Positions 4,683-49,836 of a stretch of 64,000 nucleotides of DNA are shown here, in pieces (the stretch's first letter is position 1; the number at the start of each line of letters is the position of its first letter). Source of the DNA: Rhynchopus sp. YZ270_cl-10. Its lineage: Eukaryota. The notes under the pieces are model-generated. The model did not search any database and was not told the origin of the DNA. It saw nothing but the letters and a program-made list of their open reading frames with translations. The position numbers were made by a program, and so were the translations under genes. Location: contig OZ037836.1 of the NCBI GenBank assembly GCA_964035575.1, positions 2,046,001-2,110,000 of the forward strand. The letters are read 5' to 3'.

Positions 4683-6126
4683 ATGGACAAACCCCGTACC
4701 ACACTGCACGTCAAGACGCTTGCGACGAACGAGGTGTTCCACCTGAAGAAGGTCAGCACAGCCACGACAGTCGCTACGCTCAAAGCACGGCTCAACCCGC
4801 TCCTCGGCGACAGCGGTGCAGTGACATCCGATGCTTTGGTGCTTCTGCGTGAGGGTGGCAGCGTCAACATCACCGATACCGACACCATAGCTGGTGCAGG
4901 GCTTGAGGGCGCCACCCTCCTGGTCATGACGTCCGAGCAGTACCACGGGTCGCCACACAAGGTGCCCCCCGCACTTCCCCCCTCTGCGCTGAAGAAGAGC
5001 GTGACGATACACGAAACGCCGACTCAGCGGAGCACGGTGCGGAGCACGGGAGCGGACGGTACCTTTGCGCTTCGCGTACAGTGCACGCTGGGGAGCAGCG
5101 GGGACGCGGTGTTGAAGGGCGTCTCCGCACGCAGCAGTGTCGGCTGGCTCCTCGACATCCTGGCACGCCACGTCGCGCACCCGCAGGCTGCCCTCCTCCT
5201 CCTCCACGACGGCCAGCCCCTTGCAGAAGGCGACTCCATCGGCTCTGCCGGCGTGACACCCGACTCAAAGCTCACCCTCATCGCGAAAGACCCGACACAC
5301 ATCCTCGACAACGAGAAGATCTCTGTATACCTCGAGACCGCGGCAGGCGACGTCACCTCCTTGAGGGTACCCCTCGGGTCTCGCGTGCAGGAGCTAAGCA
5401 ACGCTGCTGCCGCGAATTGGGATATGCCCCAAGGTGCTGTAGTCCTGAGTGTCGGTGGTGCCACCCTCGACCCGCGTGCCACGCTGTCTGCGGCAGGTGT
5501 GCAGGACGAACAGACGCTTCTCGTCACCTCCTCCCTCCCCGCAACCAGCCTCCGTCCCAAGACCTGCCATGTGTGCGGCCTCCCGCAGACAACCACATAC
5601 TGCACAGTCTCGGGAGAGCGCCACCTTGAGGCGGCAGAGGCACACCCTCTCCCAGGCGAAGTGACGGGGCCGCTCCTCACCAACTCGATACAGCCCATTG
5701 AGGAGGTGACCGCACCGTCCGCAACGGAGGCGATGCACATCACGATCTCTGTGTTCAACAAGGTGGACGGAAAGGAGTACCGCCTGCCCACACTGCGTCC
5801 GGGGGCTGTGACGGTACGCAAGGTGAAGCTTCTCCTGGCGAAGGCAGTGGGCGTGCCCGTCGCGGATATGGTGCTTAAGGGTGGCGGCGGTGCCGTGGCG
5901 TTGCTCGACACGCTCACATTGCGGCAGGCGGGCATCGTACACGGGGAGAGTCTGGTGCTCAGTGTACGTGGTCTTAACGACTTTGTAGCCTCGGGTGAGC
6001 TGCACGGCGGGCGTGAGCCCACTACACTAGGCATAGAACGAACGTATCCAACCATGTCGCCACCTAAGCAGTTCCCAACAGCGTTCCACCCTGACGAGCA
6101 CCCTTTGGTGCAGCCGCACTTTGACA
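4683..6126 (+). CDS. Exon 1 of a 3-exon multi-ubiquitin-like-domain protein (~4 UBL domains plus a CxxC...C...H Zn-ribbon-like motif); spliced product ~962 aa
   Basis: GC-rich ORF with repeated ubiquitin-fold patterns (LHVKTLATNEVFHLKKVSTATTVATLKARL; LLHDGQPLAEGDSIGSAGVTPDSKLTL; LSVGGATLDPRATLSAAGVQDEQTL; TVRKVKLLLAKAVGVPVADMVL) and CHVCGLPQTTTYCTVSGERH; GTATGT donor at 6127 (phase 1), followed by an AT-rich shift. Confidence 0.85.
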
Positions 6127-6447
6127 GTATGTTCTTCCCCCACACTCAGTCTATGAAAGCAACAGTGAATGATGATCATCTTTCCTTTGCTGCTTTCCTC
6201 GCCGTTCAAAAAACAGTTTCTCGTATTGTGCGAGAATGCCATCACAATCGTTTATCACCCAACCCTAACGAGCCATGATGTTGATCCAAAATTATTCAAT
6301 AATTAAACTCTTCCCCTAAAAGCCCCTTTCTTTGTTTTTCTTTATCCAATGAATGTACTTTATCCAAAACGAGGATGCGTAATGGTCCCTTCATACATTT
6401 ACGGCCAAAATGCTACAAAAAAAAAATCAATAAAAAAAACACAACAG

Positions 6448-10401: not shown

Positions 10402-11962
10402 CAGGGAAATAGCTCCATATACCGAATTATGCGACATCGCATAATTCTGGATTTTTGGGAAAAAAAAAAAAAAATAGTGGAGTTCATCCTCGGGTGTCTA
10501 CACTAATACAACCAAGTTTTCAAAAAAAAAAAAAAAAAAAAAGATGGTGTGACCACCCAAACCGATTCTCCGAGGTTCTTCCGTGGTTCTTCCGTAGGTA
10601 CTCCGGTAAGGGGGGTATACGATTTTTTTTTGTTGTTTTCGGTTTTCGCCCCTCGGGGGGGCTTCGAGACCTGGCAACCGCATACGTACCCTCAGGTTGT
10701 GTAAAAGTGATCATGCTGACCAAAACATAAAAGTAACGACCAAAAAAAAAAACGAAAAATGAATTTCCTAAAGCAAACTGACGGTGTTGACTTGGCTGTG
10801 CAGACACAGGCCCCTGGACAAGTCAGGACAGTGGCACGTGGGCACTACACCGCAACCCGGAGGAAAGGGAATGATACACCACCACCTGCACGCGGGTGCT
10901 ACAAACATTTTGACTGGGAAAGCCTCCAAGGCGGTCATGGCATATATAGTTGCGTATTACACACAGTACACAGTACACAGTACACAGTACACAGTACACA
11001 GTACACAGTACACAGTACACAGTACACAGTACACAGTACACAGTACACAGTACACAGTACACAGTACACAGTACACAGTACACAGTACACAGTACACAGT
11101 ACACAGTACACAGTACACAGTACACAGTACACAGTACACAGTACACAGTACACAGTACACAGTACACAGTACACAGTACACAGTACACAGTACACAGTAC
11201 ACAGTACACAGTACACAGTACACAGTACACAGTACACAGTACACAGTACACACGATATACGGGCGGTTCATTTTTTCTCAAGGGATTTTTTCCTCGCCGT
11301 TATTTTTTCGCGCGAAAATGCCATTTTTGGCACGTTTCAACCAATACAAACCCGTGGTGACCTCTCTCAGTCAAATTTGTGGTCATTTTCCCCTTGTGAC
11401 AGAAACCGAGAACAACAAAAAAAAAGTATACCCCTAGCAGTTCTCCGAGGTTCCTCCGTGGTTCTTCCGTGGGTTCTCCGTACCCCCTGAATCACACCAA
11501 AAGAGGGGATTTTTGGGCACTTTTGGGGGCCCCTCGCCCGACCCCCAGATCTCCCAAATGACTGGAATGATGAAATCGTAAAAGTTTCGCTCGCTGCGCT
11601 TGCAGATGTGCCGTACCCCTTAATTTTTTTTTGCCTGCGGCGCCATTTTCCTTTTTTGCTCCGCAAAAAAGGGTTTGTTGAGTGACTGTGTGGTTGTAAA
11701 CCAGCATTTTTACACCGTACCCTATTTTTTTTTCGCCTGCGGCGCCATTTATTTTTTTCCATACGGTTAGTGGAACGTAAGGTGCAAGACCAAGCTCCGT
11801 AATAAGGTATTACATTCCGTTTTTGGTTATCGCAAATTGACCTTTCGCCTCTCCACTCAGGGAGGCTTGCGCGAAGCGCAACGACCGCTTTCGACCGGGC
11901 GGAAAAAAAAATTCGTTTTCGCATAATTCCTGATTTTGGAGGAAAACCAAGCTATTTCCCTG
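10402..11962. mobile_element. TIR element C nested in family A, 9-bp TSD (Mutator-like by TSD length)
   Basis: 13-bp TIR CAGGGAAATAGCT / AGCTATTTCCCTG; TSD AAAAAAGCC at 10393-10401 and 11963-11971; empty site visible in the 37099 copy. Confidence 0.85.
10961..11252. repeat. (ACACAGT)n microsatellite, ~41 units
   Basis: Perfect 7-bp tandem repeat. Confidence 0.98.
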
Positions 11963-12894: not shown

Positions 12895-14157
12895 ATGGAC
12901 GTAACCATCAAGGGGTACGACGACAACTTGTTCATGATCGAGGTGGGTGTGGATGACACAACGGAGACGATGCGGCAGAAGGTGGCGTCTGCAGTGGGGT
13001 TGGCTGAGGACAGCTTCCACATGGGCTTCGGAGGGAAGGACGAAGGAGAGGACATCACGCAGCTGAGTGCTGGAGACACAATCATCCTCACGAAAACTAC
13101 GAAGTACGCAGCCCGAGCAGAGCTTCACGCGTTGGGTGAGACGGACATCACTGCAGAGCGGTTGGAGGACGTGGAGGATCCTGAGGTGGCGTGTTTGCTT
13201 CTGCAGGCGGAGGTTGCGACTGTCATTCCGGATAAGTTCTTGTCGGGTTCATCGTTTACGAGACTTGATCTGAGTGCTGTGTCGTGTGTGACGGAGGTTG
13301 GTGATAGCTTTTTGTACAGTTGTACAACGTTGACAAGCATCGACCTGTCTGGGTTGAGCAACGTGACGCGCATCGGTAGCTACTTTCTCTCCGACTGCAA
13401 AGGCTTAACCACTCTGGATCTTCCGCCACTCAGCAACTTGACGCACATCGGTGAAGGCTTTCTTGACGGCTGCAAAGGCTTAACCACTGTGGATCTTTCG
13501 CCATTCAGCAACTTGACCCGCATCGAGAGCTACTTTCTCTACGACTGCGAAGGCTTAACTACTCTGGATCTTTCACCACTCGGCAACGTGACAGAAATCG
13601 GTAAAGGCTTTCTCGACGGCTGCGATGGCTTAACCGCTCTGGATCTTAGACCACTCAGCAACGTGACAGAAATCGATGGCAACTTTCTCAGAGGCTGCGA
13701 AGGTTTAACCACTCTGGATCTTTCTCCACTCAGCAACTTGACGCGCATCACTAGAGGCTTTCTCGAGGGCTGCGAAGGCTTAACCACTCTGGATATTTCT
13801 CCACTCAGCAACTTGACGCACATCGATAGCTACTTTCTCACCGTCTGCAAGGGCTTAACCACTCTGGATCTTTCTCCACTCAGCAACTTGACAGAAATCA
13901 GTGAAGGCTTTCTCGACGAGTGCGAAGGCTTAACCACTCTGGATCTTTCTCCACTCAGCAGGGTTACGTTTGTTGGTTGCCAATTTCTTACGAACTGCAC
14001 TTCGTTGAAGAGTATTTACCTTACCGGCTGCAGCAGTGCTGTGTCAGACGCAGTAGTGAAGTGCGAGCTGAAGAAGCTTGTGGTTGAAGCATGTCCGAAA
14101 CGCAGCAGAGACGAATCCCCCGAGCAAGCACACAAACGGCAGAGACACGCACAATGA
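12895..14157 (+). CDS. UBL-LRR protein, family A (NLS-like tail), 420 aa
   Basis: N-terminal ubiquitin-like MDVTIKGYDDNLFMIEVGVDDT...; 25-aa LRRs LTTLDLSPLSN(L/V)TxIxxxFLxxCxG; C-terminus PKRSRDESPEQAHKRQRHAQ. Confidence 0.93.
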   Translation: MDVTIKGYDDNLFMIEVGVDDTTETMRQKVASAVGLAEDSFHMGFGGKDEGEDITQLSAGDTIILTKTTKYAARAELHALGETDITAERLEDVEDPEVACLLLQAEVATVIPDKFLSGSSFTRLDLSAVSCVTEVGDSFLYSCTTLTSIDLSGLSNVTRIGSYFLSDCKGLTTLDLPPLSNLTHIGEGFLDGCKGLTTVDLSPFSNLTRIESYFLYDCEGLTTLDLSPLGNVTEIGKGFLDGCDGLTALDLRPLSNVTEIDGNFLRGCEGLTTLDLSPLSNLTRITRGFLEGCEGLTTLDISPLSNLTHIDSYFLTVCKGLTTLDLSPLSNLTEISEGFLDECEGLTTLDLSPLSRVTFVGCQFLTNCTSLKSIYLTGCSSAVSDAVVKCELKKLVVEACPKRSRDESPEQAHKRQRHAQ

Positions 14158-15186
14158 CGATGAGGTGTGCTGCATAACGGGCTTCCTCAAGTCGCTCTTC
14201 CAACCAAAGCAGACATGGTGGCAGTTTAGTGAGGACACATCAGTTGGCAAATGTTTGTTTAATGTTTATGAGTGTAGCATCGGTTTGTAATGTGGTCCAC
14301 ATTTTTGTGGGAATTGTCAAGATCTTGATCACAAAGATGAAGATTTGGGCTGTGTGGAATGTTTGTCTTCTTTGCCTTGTCGGGTGTGTGCACTGTATGT
14401 GAAACAACTGTGGCTCTGCAGGTACATGCTCTGATGTCTATTCAGTGTGGTGTGTTGTGGTTTTGTTATGTTCTGTTATGTTTAGTTCATTTTAAAGCAT
14501 ATTCGGGGATGGTACATGGGGACAGGAAGGGTAACAAACAAGGTGGTCGCCCTTCTTTATTAGCACGCCATATGTTAGGGTTTTGTGCATTGCTTCTTTC
14601 ATTTGTTTTGCAGTCAGGCCAGCTTACTGCATGGGAGGGCTGCCACATCCAGGGGTGAGATGTGCTGCCTGTAAATGACTTCTCGAGTCCGCGAAGTGCA
14701 TTCATTTTGCAACTCCAACAGATGCAGAAGGAATGTGGGGGAGGACCTGGCACAGCACATGAACATCTGTACAGATGCTGTCACAAATATTCGGACAAAA
14801 ACAAAACAAAAGACCTCTCCCCTTGCAACTGTTTGTTGTCTCTTGCGTACTCTTACCCCCAATTGAAAACACCTGCACAAAACAGAGAGACACAAAACCA
14901 TGGAAATATGTGTGAAGAGCTTTGACGGAGAGAAGTACACAGTCGAGGTGGGTGTGGATGATACAACTGCGGACATACGGCGGAAGGTGGCGTCTGCAGC
15001 AGAGTTGTGCGAAGACGGCTTTGACATGAGCTTCGGAGAGAAGCTGCTGGCCGAAGGAGACGACACGACGCAGCTGAGTGCTGGGGACACAGTTGTGCTG
15101 ACGAAGACGAAGTCGCAGAAGGACGACGCCATTGCAGCTCTTCGTGACTTGGGTGAGACAAGGCTGACGTCAGAGAGGTTCGAAGG

Positions 15187-15253
15187 TGGGGTTTTACCGA
15201 GCACCTCCACGAGGTGACCCCGGGCAACGCAGTGGACTGCGGCAAAGACTCGG
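15187..15253 (+). ncRNA. Putative HDV-like self-cleaving ribozyme
   Basis: Manual fold: P1 15187-15193/15216-15222; P2 15197-15202/15247-15253 (bulged A); P3 ACC/GGU; L3 UCCACGA; P1.1 CC/GG; P4 CGCAG-UGGA-CUGCG; J4/2 GCAAA with candidate catalytic C15243. Confidence 0.8.
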
Positions 15254-17931
15254 AACAAGAAGAAAAAGAAGAACAACATCTGAAGTGCCTCATGGAATAC
15301 GAGGACCGCTAACTTCGCGACATGGTAGCTTTTTACGTGCTAGCCGAAGCCTGAACCCAAGACCTCCCTAGTAGGGGGGGCGCGTGATCACTCAGCAGTC
15401 AAACAACAACATTTGAAAGACCTCATGGAATACGAGGACCGCTAACTTCGACGACATGGTAGCTTTTACGTGCAAGCCGAAGCATGAACCTAAGACCTCC
15501 CTAGTAGGGGGGGCGCGTGATCACTCAGCAGACAAACTACATCATCAGAAATGCCTCATGGAATACGAGGACCGCTAACTTCGGCGACATGGTAGCTTTT
15601 ACGTGCAAGCCGAAGCCTGAACCTAAGACCTCCCTAGTAGGGGGGGCGCGTGATCACTCAGCAGTCAAACAACAACATCTGAAAGACCTCATGGAATACG
15701 AGGACCGCTAACTTCGACGACATGGTAGCTTTTACGTGCTAGCCGAAGCATGAACCTAAGACCTCCCTAGTAGGGGGGGCGCGTGATCACTCAGCAGACA
15801 AACTACAACATCTGAAAGACCTCATGGAATACGAGGACCGCTAACTTCGACGACATGGTAGCTTTTACGTGCAAGCCGAAGCATGAACCTAAGACCTCCC
15901 TAGTAGGGGGGGCGCGTGATCACTCAGCAGACAAACAACAACATCTGAAAGACCTCATGGAATACGAGGACCGCTAACTTCGACGACATGGTAGCTTTTA
16001 CGTGCTAGCCGAAGCATGAACCTAAGACCTCCCTAGTAGGGGGGGGCGCGTGATCACTCAGCAGACAAACAACAACATCTGAAAGACCTCATGGAATACG
16101 AGGACCGCTAACTTCGGCGACATGGTAGTTCTTTACGTGCAAGCCGAAGCATGAACCTAAGACCTCCCTAGTAGGGGGGGCGCGTGATCACTCAGCAGAC
16201 AAACAACAACATCTGAAAGACCTCATGGAATACGAGGACCGCTAACTTCGACGACATGGTAGCTTTTACGTGCTAGCCGAAGCATGAACCTAAGACCTCC
16301 CTAGTAGGGGGGGGCGCGTGATCACTCAGCAGACAAACAACAACATCTGAAAGACCTCATGGAATACGAGGACCGCTAACTTCGGCGACATGGTAGTTCT
16401 TTACGTGCAAGCCGAAGCATGAACCTAAGACCTCCCTAGTAGGGGGGGCGCGTGATCACTCAGCAGACAAACAACAACATCTGAAAGACCTCATGGAATA
16501 CGAGGACCGCTAACTTCGACGACATGGTAGCTTTTACGTGCTAGCCGAAGCATGAACCTAAGACCTCCCTAGTAGGGGGGGGCGCGTGATCACTCAGCAG
16601 ACAAACAACAACATCTGAAAGACCTCATGGAATACGAGGACCGCTAACTTCGACGACATGGTAGCTTTTACGTGCAAGCCGAAGCATGAACCTAAGACCT
16701 CCCTAGTAGGGGGGGCGCGTGATCACTCAGCAGACAAACTACATCAGAAATGCCTCATGGAATACGAGGACCGCTAACTTCGACGACATGGTAGCTTTTA
16801 CGTGCTAGCCGAAGCATGAACCTAAGACCTCCCTAGTAGGGGGGGGCGCGTGATCACTCAGCAGTCAAACAACAACATCTGAAAGACCTCATGGAATACG
16901 AGGACCGCTAACTTCGACGACATGGTAGCTTTTTTCGTGCAAGCCGAAGCATGAACCTAAGACCTCCCTAGTAGGGGGGGCGCGTGATCACTCAGCAGTC
17001 AAACAACAACATCTGAAAGACCTCATGGAATACGAGGACCGCTAACTTCGGCGACATGGTAGCTTTTTTCGTGCAAGCCGAAGCATGAACCTAAGACCTC
17101 CCTAGTAGGGGGGGCGCGTGATCACTCAGCAGTCAAACAACAACATCTGAAAGACCTCATGGAATACGAGGACCGCTAACTTCGGCGACATGGTAGCTTT
17201 TTTCGTGCAAGCCGAAGCATGAACCTAAGACCTCCCTAGTAGGGGGGGCGCGTGATCACTCAGCAGACAAACAACATCATCAGAAATGCCTCATGGAATA
17301 CGAGGACCGCTAACTTCGACTACATGGTAGTTCTTTACGTGCAAGCCGAAGCCTGAACCTAAGACCTCCCTAGTAGGGGGGGCGCGTGATCACTCAGCAG
17401 TCAAACAACAACATCTGAAAGACCTCATGGAATACGAGGACCGCTAACTTCGGCGACATGGTAGCTTTTACGTGCTAGCCGAAGCATGAACCTAAGACCT
17501 CCCTAGTAGGGGGGGCGCGTGATCACTCAGCAGACAAACTACAACATCAGAAACGATGCCCATGGAATATGAGGCAATTCTTAGTATTTTACCTTTTTCG
17601 TGTATTTCAATCTTGGTCAACGACATTCTTGTTTTTAAAACATTGTTTTTCAGTTACTATAGCGACGCGTAAGCCCAAATGGCTCTGTTGCTGTTCATTG
17701 CTTTTCCTTTTCAAGTTGATACAAGATTTTTTATTTTATTTTAAGTTGGTTCAGCCTCGCGTCAGCCCATTGGCGCTGTCGCTGAACCCAAACATTTTCC
17801 TTTTCTTTGTTCGGTTTTTGGCCCGTGAGACCCAGTGTTACTGCAATACTGGGTTCGCGAGCCTGAAGCCAGGGGTGGCTGCATTCCTTTTCGGACCGGG
17901 GTGCTCCATCCTATTTTTAAAAAACGTTTAC
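15188..17931 (+). mobile_element. Non-autonomous retroposon-like insertion with 5' HDV-like ribozyme and internal tandem array
   Basis: 20-bp TSD CGTCAGAGAGGTTCGAAGGT at 15168-15187 and 17932-17951; no TIR; no credible ORF. Confidence 0.85.
15272..17570. repeat. Tandem array, ~17 copies of a ~133-bp unit
   Basis: CTCATGGAATACGAGGACC recurs at 15289, 15422, 15555, 15688, 15821 ... 17424. Confidence 0.97.
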
Positions 17932-19178
17932 CGTCAGAGAGGTTCGAAGGTCTTGCAGATCCCAAGCTGGTTCATTTGTTTCTGCAGGCGGAGGTTGTTA
18001 CTGAGATCCCCGATGAATTATTGCGAGGGGTCGTGTTCTCAGAACTTGATCTCAGTGGTGTGTCAGGTGTTACCTGTGTAGGTTACAACTTCCTCCAATA
18101 CTGCCCTTCATTGCACACAGCTGACTTATCTGGGTGGAACAATGTGACGCGGGTTGGGCACTCTTTTCTCTCCATCTGCAGCACATTGCGAAGCCTTGAC
18201 TTGTCTGGGTGGAACACTGTGACGCACGTAGGAGACTTCTTTCTCTGCAACTGCACCTCATTGACCACACTGGATATTTCAGGGTGGAACAATGTGACGC
18301 ATGTTGGGACCTGTTTCCTCACCAAATGCACTTCATTGCAAACCCTTGACCTATCTGGGTTAACGACTGTTCAGCACATTGGGACAGGCTTCCTGTATGG
18401 ATGCAAAATACGTACAAGCAGCATCAACGTCACCGGATCGAGCAGTGTTGTGTCAGAATATGTGCAGAGTCGTAACCTCGTGGATAAAATCAAGCACCAA
18501 TGTGTGTGCATGTGAGGCATGTGCATCTTTCGAGAGGCTAGGTACTCATTGCGATGTTCAGAGAACGAATTTTACATTGCACGTTGCACTTTGCCCTTAC
18601 CAAAACTAACGTCGCTTTTGACCGTTCTTTTGCTTTCCCAAGCTTCAAAGGTTAAAAAGAACGAGCGAAGAATAAATCATAGCTGGTGATGTTTTATACC
18701 CGATTCTTTGCCTCCTCGCGTGCGTACAGTGCTGCAACCAAGCATGTTGTCGCAGCCAGTATTTTTGTGCACTATTTGGGTTGGACCCCTGTAGTCATGA
18801 TAAAAGCGATGACGCCATTGAGCGACTCATAGGCGCATGAGTGATAGACGTTGTCGCTGTGGTATCCCGCCTCGCAGAGGAAGGTGTTTTTGACACAGCA
18901 ACTTCGTGAGTTAGTATCGGTCTGTGAATCAAATTGAAAACGGCGTGTTTGCGCGTCATATCGCAGAGGATAGAGAAACTGAAAAGTATTGAAAATAACA
19001 GAAGTATGGTGCCAAGTTCACAAGGAACAGATAGTGGAGCACATCCTCTGTCCACATTACTATAACGAAGCTTTCAAAAACAAAACAAAAGACCTCTCCC
19101 CTTGTAACTGTTTGTTGTCTCTTGCGTACTCTCACCCCCAATTGAAAACACCTGCACAAAACAGAGAGACACAAAACC

Positions 19179-20105
19179 ATGGAAATATGTGTGAAGAGCT
19201 TTGACGGAGAGAAGTACACAGTCGAGGTGGGTGTGGATGATACAACTGCGGACATACGGCGGAAGGTGGCGACTGCAGCAGAGTTGTGCGAAGACGGCTT
19301 TGACATGAGCTTCGGAGAGAAGGTGCTGGCCGAAGGAGACTACATCACGCAGCTGAGTGCTGGGGACACAGTTGTGCTGACGAAGACGAAGTCGCAGAAG
19401 GACGACGCCATTGCAGCTCTTCGTGACTTGGGTGAGACAAGGCTGACGTCAGAGAGGTTCCAAGGTCTGAGAGATCCCAAGCTGGTTCATTTGTTTCTGC
19501 AGGCGGAAGTTGTGACTGAGATCCCCGATAAATTCTTGTCAGGTGGCACGTTCTCAGAACTTGATCTCAGTGGTGTGCCAGGTGTTACCTGTATAGGTTA
19601 CACCGTTTTCCAATTCTGCAGCGTATTGCACACCGCTGATTTATCTGGGTGGAGCAATGTGACGTACATTGGGATGTACTTCCTCTCCATCTGCAGCACA
19701 TTGCGAACCCTTGACTTGTCTGGGTGGAACAATGTGAGGCACGTAGGGGACTTCTTCCTCTGCAACTGCACCTCATTGACCACACTGGATATTTCTGGGT
19801 GGAACAGTGTGACGCGGGTTGGTGATTACTTTCTCTCCAACTGCACCTCATTGACCACGCTGGATATTTCTGGGTGGAACAATGTGACGCATGTTGGGAT
19901 ATGTTTCCTCACCAAATGTACTTCATTGCAAACCCTTGACTTATCTGGGTTGACGACTGTTCAGCACATTGAGGAAGGCTTCCTAAAAGGATGTAAAATA
20001 CCCACAAGCAGCATCAACGTCACGGGATCGAGCAGTGTTGTGTCAGAATATGTGCAGAGCCCTAACCTCGTGGACAAAATCAAGCACAAATGTGTGTGCA
20101 TGTGA
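19179..20105 (+). CDS. UBL-LRR-CaaX protein, family B, 308 aa
   Basis: MEICVKSFDGEKYTVEV UBL; 25-aa LRRs LTTLDISGWNNVTxxxxxFLxxCTS; ends KIKHKCVCM. Confidence 0.93.
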   Translation: MEICVKSFDGEKYTVEVGVDDTTADIRRKVATAAELCEDGFDMSFGEKVLAEGDYITQLSAGDTVVLTKTKSQKDDAIAALRDLGETRLTSERFQGLRDPKLVHLFLQAEVVTEIPDKFLSGGTFSELDLSGVPGVTCIGYTVFQFCSVLHTADLSGWSNVTYIGMYFLSICSTLRTLDLSGWNNVRHVGDFFLCNCTSLTTLDISGWNSVTRVGDYFLSNCTSLTTLDISGWNNVTHVGICFLTKCTSLQTLDLSGLTTVQHIEEGFLKGCKIPTSSINVTGSSSVVSEYVQSPNLVDKIKHKCVCM

Positions 20106-22187: not shown

Positions 22188-23171
22188 ATGGAAATATGTG
22201 TGAAGAGCTTTGACGGAGAGAAGTACACAGTCGAGGTGGGTGTGGATGATACAACTGCGGACATACGGCGGAAGGTGGCGACTGCAGCAGAGTTGTGCGA
22301 AGACGGCTTTGACATGAGCTTCGGAGAGAAGGTGCTGGCCGAAGGAGACTACATCACGCAGCTGAGTGCTGGGGACGCAGTTGTGCTGACGAAGACGAAG
22401 TCGCAGAAGGACGACGCCATTGCAGCTCTTCGTGACTTGGGTGAGACAAGGCTGACGTCAGAGAGGCTCGAAGGTCTGAGAGATCCCAAGCTGGTTCATT
22501 TGTTTCTGCAGGCGGAGGTTGTTACTGAGATCCCTCGTAGATGCTTGTCAGGTCGCACGTTCTCAGAACTTGATCTCAGTGGTGTGCCAGGTGTGACTGC
22601 AATAGGCGACTACGTCCTCCAAAACTGCACCTCATTGCACACTGCTGACTTATCTGGGTGGAGCAATGTAGGACTCCTGAAGAGTTTCTTCCTCTCCAAA
22701 TGCACTGCCTTGCGCACCCTTGACTTGTCTGGGTGGAACAATGTGAGGCACGTAGGGGACTTCTTCCTCATGAACTGCACCTCATTGACCACACTGGATA
22801 TTTCCGGGTGGAACAGTGTGACGCGGGTTGGTGATTACTTTCTCTCCAACTGCACCTCATTGACGACGCTGGATATTTCTGGGTGGAACAATGTGACACG
22901 GGTTGATATGTACTTTCTCTACCACTGCACCTCATTGACCACACTGGATATTTCTGGGTGGAACAATGTGACGCATGTTGGGACCTGCTTCCTCTCCAAA
23001 TGCACTGCATTGCGAACACTTGACTTATCTGGGTTGACGACTGTTCAGCACATTGGGAAAGGCTTCCTAAAAGGATGCAAAATACCCACAAGCAGCATCA
23101 ACATCACCGGATCGAGCAGTGTTGTGTCAGACAAAATGGACAAAATCAAGCACAAATGTGTGTGCATGTGA
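22188..23171 (+). CDS. UBL-LRR-CaaX protein, family B, 327 aa
   Basis: Same architecture; short tail SDKMDKIKHKCVCM. Confidence 0.93.
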   Translation: MEICVKSFDGEKYTVEVGVDDTTADIRRKVATAAELCEDGFDMSFGEKVLAEGDYITQLSAGDAVVLTKTKSQKDDAIAALRDLGETRLTSERLEGLRDPKLVHLFLQAEVVTEIPRRCLSGRTFSELDLSGVPGVTAIGDYVLQNCTSLHTADLSGWSNVGLLKSFFLSKCTALRTLDLSGWNNVRHVGDFFLMNCTSLTTLDISGWNSVTRVGDYFLSNCTSLTTLDISGWNNVTRVDMYFLYHCTSLTTLDISGWNNVTHVGTCFLSKCTALRTLDLSGLTTVQHIGKGFLKGCKIPTSSINITGSSSVVSDKMDKIKHKCVCM

Positions 23172-24089: not shown

Positions 24090-25016
24090 ATGGAAATATG
24101 TGTGAAGAGCTTTGACGGAGAGAAGTGCACAGTCGAGGTGGGTGTGGATGATACAACTGCGGACATACGGCGGAAGGTGGCGTCTGCAGCAGAGTTGTGC
24201 GAAGACGGCTTTGACATGAGCTTCGGTGGGAAGCTGCTGGCCGAAGGAGACGACACGACGCAGCTGAGTGCTGGGGACACAGTTGTGCTGATGAAGACGA
24301 AGTCGCAGAAGGACGACGCCATTGCAGCTCTTCGTGACTTGGGTGAGACATGGCTGACGTCAGAGAGATTCGAAGGTCTGAGAGATCCCAAGCTGGTTCA
24401 TTTGTTTCTGCAGGCGGAGGTTGTTACTGAGATACCCTTCAACTGCTTGAGAGGTGCCACGTTCTCAGAACTTGATCTCAGTGGTGTGCCAGGTGTTACC
24501 TGTGTAGGTTTCGAATTCCTCACCCACTGCCCCTCATTGCACAGAGCTGATTTGTCTGGGTGGAACAATGTCACACTTATTTCAGGGTTCTTACTCTGCC
24601 ACTGCACCTCATTGCGCACTGTTGATTTATCTGGGTGGAGCAATGTGACACGCACTGGGAGTGCGTTCCTCAACGACTGCAGGGCATTGACCACACTGGA
24701 TATTTCAGGGTGGAACAATGTGACACGTGTTGATGACTGCTTCCTCATGAACTGCACCTCATTGACCACGCTGGATATTTCTGGGTGGAGAACTGTAAGG
24801 CACATAGGGAGCGACTTCCTCTACAACTGCAGCGCATTGAAAACCCTTGACTTATCTGGGTTGACGACTGTTCAGCACATTGGGAGAGACTTCCTAATAG
24901 GATGTAAAATACCCACAAGCAGCATCAACGTCACCGGATCGAGCAGTGTTGTGTCAGAATATGTACAGAACCCTAACCTCGTGGACAAAATCAAGCACAA
25001 ATGTGTGTGCATGTGA
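24090..25016 (+). CDS. UBL-LRR-CaaX protein, family B, 308 aa
   Basis: Same architecture with a divergent set of LRR variable segments. Confidence 0.93.
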   Translation: MEICVKSFDGEKCTVEVGVDDTTADIRRKVASAAELCEDGFDMSFGGKLLAEGDDTTQLSAGDTVVLMKTKSQKDDAIAALRDLGETWLTSERFEGLRDPKLVHLFLQAEVVTEIPFNCLRGATFSELDLSGVPGVTCVGFEFLTHCPSLHRADLSGWNNVTLISGFLLCHCTSLRTVDLSGWSNVTRTGSAFLNDCRALTTLDISGWNNVTRVDDCFLMNCTSLTTLDISGWRTVRHIGSDFLYNCSALKTLDLSGLTTVQHIGRDFLIGCKIPTSSINVTGSSSVVSEYVQNPNLVDKIKHKCVCM

Positions 25017-26676: not shown

Positions 26677-27585
26677 ATGGAAATATGTGTGAAGAGCTTT
26701 GACGGAGAGAAGTACACAGTCGAGGTGGGTGTGGATGATACAACTGCGGACATACGGCGGAAGGTGGCGTCTGCAGCAGAGTTGTGCGAAGACGGCTTTG
26801 ACATGAGCTTCGGTGGGAAGCTGCTGGCCGAAGGAGACGACACGACGCAGCTGAGTGCTGGGGACACAGTTGTGCTGATGAAGACGAAGTCGCAGAAGGA
26901 CGACGCCATTGCAGCTCTTCGTGACTTGGGTGAGACAAGGCTGACGTCAGAGAGGCTCGAAGGTCTGAGAGATCCCAAGCTGGTTCATTTGTTTCTGCAG
27001 GCGGAGGTTGTTACTGAGATCCCGTATGAATTCTTGTCACATGCCACGTTCTCAGAACTTGATCTCAGTGGTGTGTCAGGTGTGACTGCAATAGGCGACT
27101 GCGTCCTCCAAAGCTGCACCTCATTGCACACTGCTGACTTATCTGGGTGGAGCAATGTAGGACTCCTGAAGAGTTTCTTCCTCTCCAAATGCACTGCCTT
27201 GCGAACCCTTGACTTGTCTGGGTGGAACAATGTGACCCGGGTTGATATGTACTTTCTCTCCAACTGCACCTCGTTGACCACACTGGATATTTCTGGGTGG
27301 AACAATGTGACGCAGCTTGGGCACTGTTTTCTCGCCGGCTGCACTGCACTGCGAATACTTGACTTGTCTGGGTGGAACAATCTGACACAGGTTGATGACT
27401 ACTTTCTGTCCAACTGCAGCGCATTGCAAACACTTGACCTATCTGGATGGACGACTGTTCAGCACATTGGGAAACGCTTCCTAAAAGGATGCAACATACC
27501 CACAAGCAGCATCAACATCACCGGATCGAGCAGTGTTGTGTCAGACAAAATGGACAAAATCAAGCACAAATGTGTGTGCATGTGA
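26677..27585 (+). CDS. UBL-LRR-CaaX protein, family B, 302 aa
   Basis: Same architecture; ends KIKHKCVCM. Confidence 0.93.
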   Translation: MEICVKSFDGEKYTVEVGVDDTTADIRRKVASAAELCEDGFDMSFGGKLLAEGDDTTQLSAGDTVVLMKTKSQKDDAIAALRDLGETRLTSERLEGLRDPKLVHLFLQAEVVTEIPYEFLSHATFSELDLSGVSGVTAIGDCVLQSCTSLHTADLSGWSNVGLLKSFFLSKCTALRTLDLSGWNNVTRVDMYFLSNCTSLTTLDISGWNNVTQLGHCFLAGCTALRILDLSGWNNLTQVDDYFLSNCSALQTLDLSGWTTVQHIGKRFLKGCNIPTSSINITGSSSVVSDKMDKIKHKCVCM

Positions 27586-28503: not shown

Positions 28504-29505
28504 ATGGAAATATGTGTGAAGAGCTTTGACGGAGAGAAGTACACAGTCGAGGTGGGTGTGGATGATACAACTGCGGACATACGGCGGAAGGTGGCGACTG
28601 CAGCAGAGTTGTGCGAAGACGGCTTTGACATGAGCTTTGGAGAGAAGGTGCTGGCCGAAGGAGACGACATCACGCAGCTGAGTGCTGGGGACACAGTTGT
28701 GCTGACGAAGACGAAGTCGCAGAAGGACGACGCCATTGCAGCTCTTCGTGACTTGGGTGAGACAAGGCTGACGTCAGAGAGGTTCAACGGTCTGAGAGAT
28801 CCCAAGCTGGTTCATTTGTTTCTGCAGGCGGAGGTTGTTACTGAGATCCCGTATGAATTCTTGTCACATGCCACGTTCTCAGAACTTGATCTCAGTGGTG
28901 TGTCAGGTGTGACTGCAATAGGCGACTGCGTCCTCCAAAGCTGCACCTCATTGCACACTGCTGACTTATCTGGGTGGAGCAATGTGACACTCCTGAAGAG
29001 TTTCTTCCTCTCCAAATGCACTGCCTTGCGCACCCTTGACTTGTCTGGGTGGAAAAATGTGACGCGGGTTGATATGTACTTTCTCTCCCACTGCACCTCA
29101 TTGACCACACTGGATATTTCTGGGTGGCACAATGTGACGCAGCTTGGGCACTGTTTTCTCGCCGGCTGCACTGCACTGCGAACCCTTGACTTATCTGGGT
29201 GGAACAATGTGACGCAGGTTGATGACTACTTTCTGTCCAACTGCACCTCATTGACCACCTTGTTTATTTCTGGGTGGAACAATGTGACGCAGCTTGGTAA
29301 CTATTTTCTCCGCAACTGCAGCGCATTGCAAACCCCTGACCTATCTGGATGGACGACTGTTCAGCACATCGGGAAAGGCTTCCTAAAAGGATGCAACATA
29401 CCCACAAGCAGCATCAACGTCACCGGATCGAGCAGTGTTGTGTCAGAATATGTGCAGAGCCCTAACCTCGTGGACATAATCAAGCACCAATGTGTGTGCA
29501 TGTGA
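28504..29505 (+). CDS. UBL-LRR-CaaX protein, family B, 333 aa
   Basis: Same architecture; ends IIKHQCVCM. Confidence 0.92.
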   Translation: MEICVKSFDGEKYTVEVGVDDTTADIRRKVATAAELCEDGFDMSFGEKVLAEGDDITQLSAGDTVVLTKTKSQKDDAIAALRDLGETRLTSERFNGLRDPKLVHLFLQAEVVTEIPYEFLSHATFSELDLSGVSGVTAIGDCVLQSCTSLHTADLSGWSNVTLLKSFFLSKCTALRTLDLSGWKNVTRVDMYFLSHCTSLTTLDISGWHNVTQLGHCFLAGCTALRTLDLSGWNNVTQVDDYFLSNCTSLTTLFISGWNNVTQLGNYFLRNCSALQTPDLSGWTTVQHIGKGFLKGCNIPTSSINVTGSSSVVSEYVQSPNLVDIIKHQCVCM

Positions 29506-30873: not shown

Positions 30874-31097
30874 AAGGTAGGGAAGGCGTTCAGGGAGTCG
30901 TCCCTCCCTTTGGCAGCACCCTCGAGTACAAGGTAGGGAAGGCGTTCAGGGAGTCGTCCCTCCCTTTGGCAACACCCTCGAGTACAAGGTAGGGAAGGCG
31001 TTCAGGGAGTCGTCCCTCCCTTTGGCAGCACCCTCGAGTACAAGGTAGGGAAGGCGTTCAGGGAGTCGTCCCTCCCTTTGGCAACACCCTCGAGTAC
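30874..31097. repeat. Minisatellite, 4 x 56 bp
   Basis: AAGGTAGGGAAGGCGTTCAGGGAGTCGTCCCTCCCTTTGGCA(G/A)CACCCTCGAGTAC in tandem. Confidence 0.95.
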
Positions 31098-34997: not shown

Positions 34998-35888
34998 ATG
35001 GACGTAACCATCAAGGGGTACGACGACAACTTGTTCATGATCGAGGTGGGTGTGGATGACACAACGGAGACGATGCGGCAGAAGGTGGCGTCTGCAGTGG
35101 GGTTGGCTGAGGACAGCTTCCACATGGGCTTCGGAGGGAAGGACGAAGGAGAGGACATCACGCAGCTGAGTGCTGGAGACACAATCATCCTCACGAAAAC
35201 TAAGAAGTACGCAGCCCGAGCAGAGCTTCATGCGTTGGGTGAGACGGACATCACTGCAGAGCGGTTGGAGGAGGTGGATGATCCTGAGGTGGCGTGTTTG
35301 CTTCTGCAGGCGGAGGTTGCGACTGTCATTCCGGATGACTTCTTGTCGCGTTCATCGTTAACGAGACTTGATCTGAGTGCTGTGTCGTGTGTGACGGAGG
35401 TTGGTGATAGCTTTTTGTACAGTTGTACAACGTTGACAAGCATCGACCTGTCAGGGTTGAGCAATGTGACGCGCATCGGTGACTACTTTCTCTCCGACTG
35501 CAAAGGCTTAACCACTCTGGATCTTTCGCCACTCAGCAACTTGACGCGCATCGGTAGCAACTTTCTCTACGACTGCAAAGGTTTAACCACTCTGGATCTT
35601 TCAGCACTCAGCAACTTCACAGAAGTCGGTGACTACTTTCTCTACTACTGCGAAGGCTTAACCACTCTGGATCTTTCACCACTCAGCAGGGTTAAGGTTG
35701 TTGATTCGCACTTTCTTACGATCTGCACTTCGTTGAAGAGTATTTACCTTACCGGCTGCAGCAGTGCTGTGTCCGACGCAGTGAGGAATAACAAGAAGCT
35801 GAGCAAACTTGTGGTTGAAGCACGTCCGAAACGCAGCAGAGACGAATCCCCCCAACAAGCACACAAACGGCAGAGACACACACAATGA
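34998..35888 (+). CDS. UBL-LRR protein, family A, 296 aa
   Basis: Paralogue of 12895; tail RPKRSRDESPQQAHKRQRHTQ. Confidence 0.93.
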   Translation: MDVTIKGYDDNLFMIEVGVDDTTETMRQKVASAVGLAEDSFHMGFGGKDEGEDITQLSAGDTIILTKTKKYAARAELHALGETDITAERLEEVDDPEVACLLLQAEVATVIPDDFLSRSSLTRLDLSAVSCVTEVGDSFLYSCTTLTSIDLSGLSNVTRIGDYFLSDCKGLTTLDLSPLSNLTRIGSNFLYDCKGLTTLDLSALSNFTEVGDYFLYYCEGLTTLDLSPLSRVKVVDSHFLTICTSLKSIYLTGCSSAVSDAVRNNKKLSKLVVEARPKRSRDESPQQAHKRQRHTQ

Positions 35889-40166: not shown

Positions 40167-41207
40167 ATGGACGTAACCATCAAGGGGTACGACGACAACT
40201 TGTTCATGATCGAGGTGGGTGTGGATGACACAACGGAGACGATGCGGCAGAAGGTGGCGTCTGCAGTGGGGTTGGCTGAGGACAGCTTCCACATGGGCTT
40301 CGGAGGGAAGGACGAAGGAGAGGACATCACGCAGCTGAGTGCTGGAGACACAATCATCCTGACGCAAAGTATGAAGTTCGAAGCCACACGAGCACTTCAT
40401 GCGTTGGGTGAGTACATCACAGCAGAGAGGCTGAGGACTGTACAGGATCCTGAGGTGGCGTGTTTGCTTCTGCAGGCGGAGGTTGCGACTGTCATTCCGA
40501 ATGCATTCTTGTCGAGTCAATTCATTACGTTAACGAGACTTGATCTGAGCTCTGTGTCATGTGTGACGGAGGTTGGTGATAGGTTTCTGTACGATTGTAC
40601 AACGTTGACAAGCATCGACCTGTCTGGGTTGAGCAATGTGACGCGCATCGGTGGCTACTTTCTCTGTGGCTGCAAAGGTTTAACCACTCTGGATCTTTCA
40701 GCACTCAGCAACTTGACAGCAATCGGTGGAAACTTTCTCCACGATTGCAAAGGTTTAACCAGCCTGGATCTGTCACCACTCAGCAACGTGACAGAAATTA
40801 AGTCCTGTTTTCTTGCCGGTTGCAAAGGCTTAACCACTCTGGATCTTACACCACTCAGCAACTTGACAGAAATCAGTAGAAGGTTTATCTATGGCTGCAA
40901 AGGCTTATCCACTCTGGATCTGTCACCACTCACCAACGTGACAGGGATAAAGTGCGATTTTCTTGCCTACTGCAAAGGCTTAACCACTCTGGATCTTTCA
41001 CCACTCAGCAGGGTTAAGGTTGTTGATTCGCACTTTCTTACGAACTGCACTTCGTTGAAGAGTATTCACCTTACCGGCTGCAGCAGTGCTGTGTCCGACG
41101 CAGTAGTGAAGTGCGAGCTGAGCAAGCTTGTGGTTGAAGCACGTCCGAAACGCAGCAGAGACGAATCCCCCCAGCAAGCACACAAACGGCAGAGACACGC
41201 ACAATGA
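40167..41207 (+). CDS. UBL-LRR protein, family A, 346 aa
   Basis: Paralogue of 12895 with a divergent linker and LRR variable segments. Confidence 0.93.
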   Translation: MDVTIKGYDDNLFMIEVGVDDTTETMRQKVASAVGLAEDSFHMGFGGKDEGEDITQLSAGDTIILTQSMKFEATRALHALGEYITAERLRTVQDPEVACLLLQAEVATVIPNAFLSSQFITLTRLDLSSVSCVTEVGDRFLYDCTTLTSIDLSGLSNVTRIGGYFLCGCKGLTTLDLSALSNLTAIGGNFLHDCKGLTSLDLSPLSNVTEIKSCFLAGCKGLTTLDLTPLSNLTEISRRFIYGCKGLSTLDLSPLTNVTGIKCDFLAYCKGLTTLDLSPLSRVKVVDSHFLTNCTSLKSIHLTGCSSAVSDAVVKCELSKLVVEARPKRSRDESPQQAHKRQRHAQ

Positions 41208-42522: not shown

Positions 42523-45500
42523 ATGCTGCGTCTCGCTGTGGCGTTGCTGCTTGCGACGTTTGCAGCAGGATCCGATGCGAAGGTGTTCTACTGGTTCAAG
42601 GCGACGAAGTCCTGGCAGAAGAGCCGTGGCAAGGAAAGCGGGAGGGAGGAGTACACCATGAAAGGATGGGTGAAGGTGGATAACGGAGTGAAAAAGGATC
42701 TTGGCTGTATCAAGTGCGACTCGTACTCCTCGTGCACAAAGACAGGAACATGGGCTTCATCCGGTACACAGAGCTTGTCCGGTGCTCTGAGGATGAGAAC
42801 CTACCTCGATGCGTGGGAGGATGACAACGGTTCGAGGTGCTCCTTCAAAAAAGGATGGTGGATCAACGACGATGACGACCGCTGTCGTGAGGAGTGCAGC
42901 ATCAACATGAAGTCTTACGCAATGGGCAGAACACACACATACAGGTGCAAGGACAACAAAGGTAAGGCCTATCTTGAGGTGCAGTTCCGTTGGTGGCCAG
43001 ACACCACTGCTGCACCGGACACACCCGCACCACCGACAAGGGCCCCACGTACACGGGCCCCACCTACACGGGCCCCACGGACACGGTCCCCACCGACACC
43101 GTCACCACCGACTCCGAGTCCTCCGACACCAGCACCACCCACTCCAAGTCCTGCAACACCATCACCACCGACTCCAAGTCCTCCGACACCTTCGCCACCG
43201 ACTCCGAGTCCTCCAACACCATCTCCACCGACTCCAAGTCCTCCAACCCCGTCGCCACCGACACCAGCACCACCGACTCCCAGTCCACCTACTCCGAGTC
43301 CTCCAACCCCGTCGCCACCGACACCATCACCACCGACTCCAAGTCCTCCGACACCATCACCACCCACTCCGAGTCCTCCGACACCTTCGCCACCGACACC
43401 GTCACCACCGACTCCGAGTCCTCCAACACCATCACCACCGACTCCGAGTCCTCCAACACCATCACCACCGACTCCAAGTCCTCCGACACCTTCGCCACCG
43501 ACACCGTCACCACCGACTCCGTCGCCACCCACTCCAAGTCCTCCAACACCATCTCCACTGACTCCAAGTCCACCGACTCCGTCGCCACCGACACCGTCAC
43601 CACCGACTCCGAGTCCTCCAACACCATCACCACCGACTCCAAGTCCTCCGACACCTTCGCCACCGACACCGTCACCACCGACTCCGTCGCCACCCACTCC
43701 AAGTCCTCCAACACCATCTCCACCGACTCCAAGTCCACCGACTCCGTCGCCACCGACACCGTCACCACCGACTCCGAGTCCTCCAACACCATCTCCACCG
43801 ACTCCAAGTCCACCGACTCCGTCGCCACCCACTCCGAGTCCTCCAACCCCGTCGCCACCGACACCAGCACCACCGACTCCGAGTCCTCCAACACCATCTC
43901 CACCGACTCCAAGTCCACCGACTCCGTCGCCACCCACTCCGAGTCCTCCAACCCCGTCGCCACCGACACCGTCACCACCGACTCCGAGTCCTCCAACACC
44001 ATCTCCACCGACTCCAAGTCCACCGACTCCGTCGCCACCGACACCGTCACCACCGACTCCGAGTCCTCCAACACCATCTCCACCGACTCCAAGTCCACCG
44101 ACTCCGTCGCCACCCACTCCGAGTCCTCCAACCCCGTCGCCACCGACACCATCTCCACCGACTCCCAGTCCACCGACTCCGAGTCCTCCAACCCCGTCGC
44201 CACCGACACCGTCACCACCGACTCCGTCGCCACCGACTCCGAGTCCTCCAACACCATCTCCACCGACTCCAAGTCCACCGACTCCGTCGCCACCCACTCC
44301 GAGTCCTCCAACCCCGTCGCCACCGACACCAGCACCACCGACTCCGAGTCCTCCAACACCATCTCCACCGACTCCAAGTCCTCCAACCCCGTCGCCACCG
44401 ACACCATCACCACCGACTCCGTCACCACCCACTCCAAGTCCTCCAACACCGTCACCACCCACTCCGAGTCCTCCAACCCCGTCGCCACCGACACCAGCAC
44501 CACCGACTCCCAGTCCACCGACTCCGAGTCCTCCGACACCTTCGCCACCGACACCGTCACCACCGACTCCGAGTCCTCCAACACCATCTCCACCGACTCC
44601 AAGTCCTCCAACCCCGTCGCCACCGACACCAGCACCACCGACTCCCAGTCCACCGACTCCGAGTCCTCCGACACCTTCGCCACCGACACCGTCACCACCG
44701 ACTCCGAGTCCTCCAACACCATCTCCACCGACTCCAAGTCCTCCAACCCCGTCGCCACCGACACCAGCACCACCGACTCCCAGTCCACCGACTCCGAGTC
44801 CTCCGACACCTTCGCCACCGACAACGTCACCACCGACTCCGAGTCCTCCAACACCATCTCCACCGACTCCAAGTCCTCCAACCCCGTCGCCACCGACACC
44901 GTCACCACCGACACCGTCACCACCGACTCCGAGTCCTCCAACACCATCTCCACCGACTCCAAGTCCACCGACTCCGTCGCCACCCACTCCGAGTCCTCCA
45001 ACCCCGTCGCCACCGACCCCAGCACCACCGACTCCAAGTCCTCCAACACCGTCGCCACCTACTCCAAGTCCTCCGACACCATCACCACCGACTCCAAGTC
45101 CTCCGACACCATCACCACCGACTCCAAGTCCTCCAACACCATCACCACCGACTCCGAGTCCTCCAACACCATCTCCACCGACTCCAAGTCCTCCAACCCC
45201 GTCGCCACCGACACCATCACCACCGACTCCGTCACCACCCACTCCAAGTCCTCCAACACCGTCACCACCCACTCCGAGTCCTCCAACCCCGTCGCCACCG
45301 ACACCAGCACCACCGACTCCCAGTCCACCGACTCCGAGTCCTCCAACCCCGTCGCCACCGACACCATCTCCACCGACTCCAAGTCCTCCGACACCTTCGC
45401 CACCGACACCGTCACCACCGACTCCGAGTCCTCCAACACCATCTCCACCGACTCCAAGTCCTCCAACCCCGTCGCCACCGACACCAGCACCACCGACTCC

Positions 45501-48500: not shown

Positions 48501-49836
48501 GGGGTTCACAGCGTTCCCGTCTGTGCTCCTGTACTTCTTTGTGTTCCTGTACCAAGGAACGGTGTACGCGTCACAGCACCTTGTCGTCTACCCTAAGACG
48601 CTTGCGCACTTCCTCGGGGGACTTGCAGGCGTGATTGCGTGCGTTGCCGTGCCGGTGTGGGTCGGGTGGAAGATACGGCGCTCTGTGGCGTGGCGAGCGA
48701 CCTACACTCCAGAGTCTGCGGAGGGGCCTGGTGTGGTGCGACTGTTCTTCCTCGGCAAGGGCGAGTGGGTGCCGACGGAGCGCGACGACCGCTTCAACAG
48801 TCGCTTCATGTCGATGCTGAAGCCGTACGGGGAGGAGACGTGCTGGTTTGTGGTGTTTTTCTTCCTGCTGATGTTCGCGGTCGGTGCACTGACAGTGCCG
48901 GACACAACAGACTTCATTGAGTGCGGGCACCTGCGCATGGGGATGGCAGTGCTGTTTGCTGTGATGGCGCTGTTTGTGGGGTGGCTGCGGCCGTACTGCC
49001 GTGTGCGCGACAACGCGCTGTACGTGGTGCTGTACTCTGTGGCTGCAGTGGCAATGGTGATGCAGGGCCTGGGCTACTACAATGAAGACCTGGACGACCC
49101 GAAGTTCACACTCGCAATGAACATTCTGACAGTTGCGTTGGCGTTGGTGATTGTGAAGGCAGTAGCGGACCTGCTCTGCGATGTGTACGTTGTGTGGACA
49201 GCACGTCGCCGCCTTCTGCAGGAGGCACTGTGGGCGAAGCAGGACGCATCACGTGTGTCTGCACGTGAGATAGACCAGCAGGGCTACCTGTCTGTGTTTG
49301 GCGAGTTGTCTGTTGCAGACACGCAGACGAAGCAGCTGCCGCCACTTCCGTCTCCGCCACCACGTGGTGGAGGCATGTTCACAGAGTTTGGTCTTCCATC
49401 CGAGACGAGCCCTCAGTACTTTGACGACGTGGGGGACGTGGAGTCGAACCCAAGCAGCCCTGTGCAGGATGTGCCACAGTCGTATGCCCACTCGCCACTG
49501 GGCGTGTCGAGTGGGCCGTTCCCCACGAAGTCCCTGCCAAGTGAGGATGTGGTGCACGTCACACCTGTGCGGCGTTCGGCAGGTGTCTCGCTCTTCAACG
49601 AACCTCCTGCGCAGCCGATGGGGTTGCTGGCGTTTGAGGCTGGCGGTCTGGGGTTCTCGCTGTCGGGACCTAGCTCGGTGCTCGCACCCACGTCGCCTGC
49701 ACAGGAGCCACCTCCTTCGGACGCGAGCCTGAGTGGAGTGTCGTTGAGTGACAACAACGTTGGGACGTCCACCTCTTCGAAGCCCTCGTGGGGCAAAGGA
49801 GCGCCACTGACGGAGGACTACGTCTCGCATGTGTGA
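42523..49836 (+). CDS. Large surface glycoprotein: signal peptide, Cys-rich head, ~240 PPTPS extensin-like repeats, S/T/P stalk, multi-pass TM domain, cytosolic tail (~2437 aa)
   Basis: ATG at 42523 after a CAG acceptor, followed by hydrophobic [19 protein letters not shown]; 7 or more hydrophobic segments at ~48380-49200. Confidence 0.9.
43081..46746 (+). repeat. Coding 15-bp tandem repeat (TPSPP)n
   Basis: Unit ACNCCN(TCN/AGT)CCNCCN with extensive synonymous variation. Confidence 0.98.

Follow-up and report, generated by a model that had tools for sequence, protein, structure and literature searches.

HDV-like ribozymes fold into a nested double pseudoknot, in which P1 stacks on P1.1 and P4, and P2 on P3 (PMC4908430). 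Ribozyme-defined 5' ends have been established for R2 and for the non-autonomous R2 SIDEs (PMC3414825, PMC3774820). In R2 and the R2 SIDEs, 3' sequences, not poly(A), are bound by the element protein to start TPRT, and the SIDEs, as non-autonomous forms, retain only the two ends (PMC3414825, PMC3774820). Ribozyme-defined 5' ends have likewise been established for the trypanosomatid L1Tc/ingi clade, including NARTc, RIME and SIDER (PMC4035085). The heads of these elements, termed Pr77, serve as a promoter in DNA form and also as a ribozyme; they start with CCCTG.. and continue past P1 with TCCAGTAC.., the elements end in poly(A), and they were screened for duplications of 7–11 nt (PMC4035085).

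Transposable elements of trypanosomatids fall into the clades INGI, CRE, VIPER and TATE (PMC12278014). The CRE clade (SLACS, CZAR, CRE1/2) groups non-LTR elements that contain one or two regions of internal repeats and whose target duplications vary in size; its members target only spliced-leader RNA genes, have an ORF for RT/RLE and as a rule terminate in poly(A), and the portion of PMC12278014 drawn on here does not mention a ribozyme head for them. A self-cleaving ribozyme serves retrotransposition in the non-LTR retrotransposons of Schistosoma mansoni too, but its class is twister-variant (PMC8501958).

Here we describe an insertion of about 2.7 kb in a 64-kb window, the whole stretch of 64,000 nucleotides that was analysed. 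A preliminary description had assigned an HDV-like ribozyme to the 5' junction of this insertion.

An insertion within one gene of a Ub-LRR array

The window carries an array of Ub-LRR genes on one strand, in which an N-terminal ubiquitin-like domain is fused to BspA-type leucine-rich repeats (12895–14157, 19179–20105, 22188–23171, 24090–25016, 26677–27585, 28504–29505, 34998–35888, 40167–41207, 53666–55084 and 55983–57182). Pfam identified three + strand ORFs as BspA-type LRR (PF13306), two of which also matched PF00240 below its cut-off; the remaining array genes were called Ub-LRR from the 75-nt LRR periodicity that recurs along the window. The family is very large: of 7,996 candidates scored, 751 proteins reached an E of 1e-5 or better. 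Fifteen of the 19 ORFs of at least 250 aa lie on the + strand; the other four, on the – strand, are each contained within a longer + ORF. Such a one-directional array would fit kinetoplastid-style transcription.

Other features share the neighbourhood. Two ubiquitin-system genes sit in the same array as the Ub-LRR genes: one at 4683–6278 encodes a 531-aa protein with a ubiquitin-like domain, for which a protein search found no homologue, and one at 52070–53320 encodes a 416-aa U-box protein, for which one homologue was retrieved (E=2.2e-29, covering 31% of the query). A 2,437-aa ORF at 42523–49836 (+) consists largely of ∼122 copies of a 30-nt unit that encodes a Pro/Thr/Ser-rich (PPTPS-like) repeat; its GC skew is strongly negative and it has no Pfam match. 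Tandem repeats of other kinds are found at 10961–11252 (ACACAGT, 41.7 copies, 100% matches, microsatellite-like), at 30874–31097 (56 nt, 4.0 copies, 98% matches), at 57791–57993 (about 48 nt, 4 copies, about 81% matches) and at 61573–62014 (TGTATACTG, 49.1 copies, 100% matches, also microsatellite-like), the last being the source of spurious matches to microRNA models of Rfam.

The insertion occupies positions 15188–17931 (2,744 nt) and splits one Ub-LRR gene copy, with its own orientation the same as that of the gene array. It lies between two copies of a 20-nt target-site duplication (TSD), assigned to neither strand: the left copy, CGTCAG..GAAGGT, at 15168–15187 is identical at 20 of 20 positions to the right copy at 17932–17951 (both CGTCAGAGAGGTTCGAAGGT). 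Empty sites are present within the same window, where uninterrupted paralogues at 19452, 28777 and 32087 each have the target sequence once. The left flank could be aligned to the paralogue 19179–20105 as far as window position 15187, corresponding to 19466, and the alignment of the right flank begins at window position 17933, corresponding to 19448. G15188 is thus the first base past the left TSD copy, and it is also the base at which the alignment to the ribozyme model starts (see below). T15187 can be attributed to the target or to the element, which leaves an ambiguity of 1 nt at the 5' boundary.

The 5' part of the interrupted gene (14900–15187, +) spans 96 codons including the ubiquitin-like domain and shows 98% identity to the paralogue at 19075–19466. 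Reading on from it into the insertion leads to a stop codon at 15215–15217. Beyond the insertion, 187 codons (17952–18515, +) continue in frame with codon 96, have no internal stop and end in a C-terminus of the same type as in the paralogue and usual for the family. The gene is therefore broken by the insertion only, its 187 downstream codons being open, and this intactness together with the identity of the two duplications points to a recent insertion event. Contigs of four sequencing runs (X1, X3, X6 and X12) that were placed on 14700–15330 have loose ends at 15187, and these represent uninterrupted paralogues.

The putative ribozyme head and its predicted cut

The first 66 nt of the insertion (15188–15253, +) can be folded as an HDV-like ribozyme with P1, J1/2, P2, P3, L3, P1.1, P4 and J4/2, an assignment that draws on the Rfam match, a core descriptor, a check of the pairs and a test of how often P2 arises by chance. 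Every helix listed in the preliminary description was found in its place. All five helices are present, and the 22 pairs, verified by script, include 21 Watson–Crick pairs. P1 joins G15188–U15193 to G15216–C15221 in 6 bp, made up of four G-C pairs, one U-A and one U.G; the seventh pair of the 7-bp P1 proposed earlier (UGGGGUU/GACCCCG), U15187.G15222, is possible. P1 closes with a G-C pair, as opposed to the G.U wobble of HDV itself, and the RF02682 consensus likewise has G-C here. J1/2 is UUA, and its 3 nt are enough for the P1–P2 spacer, which according to the published account has to be ∼3 nt or more. P2 pairs C15197–C15202 with G15247–G15253 through six Watson–Crick pairs, with A15248 bulged. 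P3 pairs A15203–C15205 with G15213–U15215 and encloses L3 (UCCACGA, 15206–15212), from which C15207 and C15208 pair with G15223 and G15222 to form P1.1. P4 pairs C15228–G15232 with C15237–G15241 around the loop UGGA, and is followed by J4/2, G15242-C15243-AAA. Taken together, these helices make up the nested double pseudoknot of HDV-like ribozymes. C15243, in the GCAAA of J4/2 on the + strand, aligns with the C of the GGCuAA and GGCUAA consensus in the two Rfam HDV models and is predicted to be the catalytic base.

The position of the cut follows the same alignment. The TSD takes in T15187 and the Rfam alignment starts at G15188, so that U15187 is –1 and G15188 is +1. This is the canonical register, with GACCCC preceding GGGCAAC as the HDV consensus has it, and cleavage is accordingly predicted between U15187 and G15188, leaving a 5'-OH on G15188. 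The preliminary description had the cut coincide with the TSD boundary, at 15186/15187; the coincidence with the boundary was borne out, but the cut itself moves one base rightward. In the comparison with HDV descriptors that it had proposed, the match to RF02682 is full-length and that to the core is unique, but the Rfam score stays below threshold.

RF02682, the family of the HDV ribozyme of F. prausnitzii, matches 15188–15255 (+) over model positions 1–74 of 74 with 37.7 bits, short of the gathering threshold of 44. The match has E=1e-5 when 301 nt are searched and E=0.0022 for the whole 64-kb window, and in a scan of the window at E-value thresholds it has the top bit score. The other Rfam matches in the window are to microRNA or sRNA models, most of them within 61420–62015, and at the default gathering thresholds Rfam returned no match anywhere in the window. 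RF00094 (HDV) aligned in the same register with 16.4 bits against a gathering threshold of 50, so that the score of the head is below threshold for both HDV families. Both models were built from bacterial and viral members, and neither P2 nor P1.1 is scored by them. The head resembles the members of these families in its architecture, its core letters and its alignment over the full length of the model; it differs in a shorter J1/2–P2 region and in its context, a eukaryotic retroposon instead of a bacterial or viral genome.

Helices by themselves carry little weight here. A lax descriptor that uses structure only found 58 starts in the window (42 on the + strand and 16 on the – strand), and since such matches are frequent the helices alone prove nothing; this descriptor was dropped as a ribozyme test. 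The letters of the core are more telling. Common to the two consensus lines are CCUCC.CG..GG in P3/L3, GGGCAAC past P1 and GGC.AA in J4/2, and the head has the conserved letters of L3, J1.1/4 and J4/2, including the J4/2 cytosine. A descriptor requiring the core letters found a single match in the window, at 15204, and none in 500 dinucleotide shuffles searched on both strands. The chance rate of P2 was estimated by swapping everything 3' of P4 for pieces drawn at random from the window: 1,848 of 200,000 trials (a rate of 0.009, <1%) yielded a P2 of at least 6 bp with a C opening J4/2, and 389 of 200,000 an all-Watson–Crick P2. Judged from its sequence, the head is a match beyond chance once the conserved core letters count, though not by helices alone.

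One feature of the fold is a real caveat for ribozyme activity. The segment 15202–15216 reads CACCUC-CAC-GAGGUG and can close into a perfect 6-bp hairpin, which lengthens P3 and would tie up the L3 cytosines on which P1.1 depends. A nested alternative fold containing this CACCUC/GAGGUG hairpin has –23.2 kcal/mol, compared with –16.9 kcal/mol for P1, P3 and P4 together, and the hairpin may be a folding trap or a switch for the ribozyme. The plain minimum free energy of the head, folded as a 68-mer, is ordinary (z=–0.68), which is uninformative because pseudoknots are not modelled.

Array, tail and abundance

Behind the ribozyme head, the insertion consists of an A-rich linker, an array of 134-nt monomers and a structured tail, in this order. 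The linker (AACAAGAAGAAAAAGAAG) was identified by sequence reading at 15254–15271 (+). Repeat analysis mapped the array to 15272–17574 (+), where 17.2 copies of the monomer, with 95% matches, account for 84% of the insertion. Adjacent monomers alternate between two variants, such as GTGCTAGCC and GTGCAAGCC, a pattern that may reflect a higher-order repeat. The final monomer, incomplete and diverged, passes gradually into the tail; from this merging we take it that the array likely arose by expansion of sequence internal to the element.

The tail (17575–17931, +) is 357 nt long and T-rich, and ends in ..AAAAAACGTTTAC, without poly(A). Folding showed it to be strongly structured: for the whole tail z=–5.49, equalled by none of 100 shuffles, and for its last 132 nt z=–5.19, equalled by none of 200. 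Long hairpins lie at 17813–17870 and 17872–17912. No poly(A) or simple 3' repeat was found at the end of the insertion. Besides two frames that leave the tail into the flanking gene, no stop-to-stop frame in the insertion exceeds 69 aa. The insertion has no inverted repeats of at least 14 nt and neither terminal inverted repeats nor long terminal repeats. Searches of the monomers and the tail for Rfam families yielded only noise, at E of 0.4 or more, and no tRNA.

We searched the window for further copies and for a partner enzyme. The 27-nt core pattern, allowing up to three mismatches, matched the query alone, so that the window holds no second copy of the ribozyme by this measure; blastn searches of the window with the head, the tail and the monomer returned these segments and the array and nothing else, and the whole-window Rfam scan at E-value thresholds gave no second HDV-type match. 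Metagenome scans with a degenerate ribozyme core and with a 23-nt word from the monomer each gave 0 matches. No RT or endonuclease domain was detected by Pfam in seven long ORFs of the window and in 52 of its 145 stop-to-stop frames of at least 110 aa, these 52 having been picked to exclude frames that overlap LRR genes or repeats.

Contigs of the sequencing runs give some indication of abundance. Twelve entries among public sequencing runs contain part of the stretch, none of them on record as RNA. The contigs of the four runs placed (X1, X3, X6 and X12) showed great abundance both of the LRR family and of the monomer. The monomer has a high summed depth (bins 15272–15330) in contigs of X1, X3 and X6, three runs that each carry a different organism label, and so has the character of an abundant satellite besides being the filler of the element. 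For X1, the summed contig depth over 15184–15271 is 13,080–57,703, against 324 for the one contig that spans 14700–14721, figures that are not a copy number; the depth over the head is 40–178 times that of the latter contig, again not to be read as a copy number. This is a weak hint that the head is present in many copies. The contigs of X6 and X12 have a gap in cover at 15206–15271, which is not evidence of absence.

Kinship and origin of the insertion

We read the insertion as a non-autonomous non-LTR retroposon of a "two ends plus filler" type. It has a TSD and empty sites, and it has neither coding sequence nor terminal repeats. The preliminary description had taken it for a 5'-complete non-autonomous retroposon, and the fold, its placement at the first base of the element, the TSD and the absence of ORFs all fit this; its view that the insertion is in the sense orientation relative to the interrupted LRR gene also stands. 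Of the parallel that it drew to L1Tc, ingi and SIDER, the mechanism holds up and the family does not, the head being without the Pr77 hallmark.

By analogy, the architecture of the insertion is closest to that of R2-type non-autonomous elements, although several differences set it apart. R2 is site-specific in 28S rDNA, while the present copy, flanked by a duplication of 20 nt, lies in a protein-coding LRR gene, so the target is not that of R2. The R2 SIDEs retain only their ends, while the middle here is filled by a 17-copy array of 134 nt, and the frames scanned contain no R2-type partner. The host, moreover, is a protist-like eukaryote and not an animal.

Likeness to the L1Tc/ingi clade is evident in the position of the ribozyme, which in LINEs and in short ORF-less derivatives of that clade makes up the first 66–80 nt and cuts just upstream of itself, in the location of the elements within one-directional gene arrays, and in similar P3/L3 segments (ACC UC..CG. 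GGU; PMC4035085). The Pr77 sequences printed in PMC4035085, as far as that paper was drawn on, were compared by eye and differ from the present head in their CCCTG.. start and in the segment past P1, which is not GGGCAAC as it is here. A Pr77 head was ruled out on these two grounds. The tail and the TSD are also unlike those of L1Tc/ingi: the insertion ends in ..AAAAAACGTTTAC with no poly(A), and its duplication is 20 nt long, in comparison with poly(A) ends and 7–11 nt (PMC4035085). On the evidence of start, post-P1 segment, tail and duplication, the present head is therefore not a Pr77 member.

Internal repeats and a target duplication recall the CRE clade, but membership in that clade was rejected, since the target here is an LRR gene and not a spliced-leader RNA gene. 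In the portion of PMC12278014 drawn on, none of INGI, CRE, VIPER and TATE combines a non-Pr77 ribozyme head, the lack of poly(A) and a target other than the spliced-leader gene. It is possible, though we lean somewhat against committing to it, that the insertion is the first example seen of a retroposon lineage not yet described, from a protist whose one-directional gene arrays are of kinetoplastid style. Such a lineage would combine a canonical-core head (HDV/R2-type, non-Pr77), a 134-nt array capable of expansion and a structured tail lacking poly(A), would stand outside INGI, CRE, VIPER and TATE, and would have been recently active, having knocked out one Ub-LRR member.

The explanation that we favour, with a probability of about three in four, is that the insertion is an ORF-less element headed by an HDV-like ribozyme that works, or worked at the time of insertion, by cutting between U15187 and G15188, and that would so free the element's RNA from read-through transcripts. 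No promoter or gene is recognisable in the element, which lies in the same sense as the one-directional gene array, and we infer from this that it would be transcribed by read-through, as part of the host transcript. The ribozyme would fold co-transcriptionally and cut just 5' of its own first base, which would leave a 5'-OH on G15188 and at the same time sever the host LRR pre-mRNA. The structured, non-polyadenylated tail would serve as a handle for the reverse transcriptase of an autonomous partner, and TPRT at nicks staggered by 20 bp would copy the RNA up to its ribozyme-defined 5' end. A DNA copy made by TPRT of a ribozyme-trimmed RNA should begin exactly at the ribozyme +1, as is seen. 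The array would probably have expanded from sequence internal to the element.

Other accounts of the same features were weighed. The insertion could be a real retroposon copy whose head resembles an HDV-like ribozyme but does not cut, its 5' end having been set by transcription start from an internal promoter or by other processing. The Rfam score below gathering would suit such a head, as would the short P1 without a G.U closing pair, the competing hairpin over L3 and the fact that a single copy was read, which provides no covariation; and since Pr77 heads are promoter as well as ribozyme (PMC4035085), a head at the 5' end can serve functions other than catalysis. Against it stand the full-length model match with the canonical letters of L3, GGGCAAC and GGCAAA, a core descriptor that none of 500 shuffles matched, a P2 that the model does not score and that is present at a chance rate <1%, and a fold whose +1 is exactly the first base of the element, and we consider this account unlikely. 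Pure chance, with an accidental coincidence at the boundary, is very improbable. It draws on the frequency of structure-only matches and on the way the candidate was found, having been chosen by eye in the course of a very large scan, but has to contend with the E of 0.0022 for the whole window, the independent chance rate of 0.009 for P2, and a fold that starts within 1 nt of one particular boundary when 128,000 strand positions were available.

A different kind of account keeps a working ribozyme and dispenses with TPRT by a LINE partner: a ribozyme-processed satellite transcript, its cDNA or a DNA fragment from a satellite locus would have been captured at a staggered double-strand break. 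That 84% of the insertion is a satellite-like array of 134-nt monomers speaks for this, and so do the lack of poly(A), the lack of a partner reverse transcriptase in the frames scanned and the abundance of the monomer, with its high summed depth in X1, X3 and X6. A perfect 20-nt TSD and a precise 5' end at +1 are, by contrast, what TPRT should produce from a ribozyme-trimmed RNA; the tail, distinct, highly structured and non-repetitive, resembles a recognition module for reverse transcriptase and not satellite DNA; and the last monomer grades into that tail, suggesting one coherent element. Such a capture strikes us as improbable, though less so than chance, and we retain the reading of a ribozyme-headed retroposon copied by TPRT.

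If the head cuts as predicted, a ribozyme-defined retroposon is added for a poorly known eukaryote, with the coincidence of the ribozyme +1 and the first base of the DNA copy visible in a single fresh insertion. It would mean that canonical-core HDV-like heads define 5' ends outside animals, beyond the divergent Pr77 type. Since R2, L1Tc/ingi and others have already established the principle, what is gained is breadth and not concept; the insertion is a new example of a ribozyme-headed mobile element, not a new principle. Its head and structured tail would offer a way to trace the autonomous partner as well as every copy in the genome. For the host, the insertion has inactivated one paralogue in an LRR family of surface type that has undergone massive expansion, and the element may thereby contribute to the turnover of that family.
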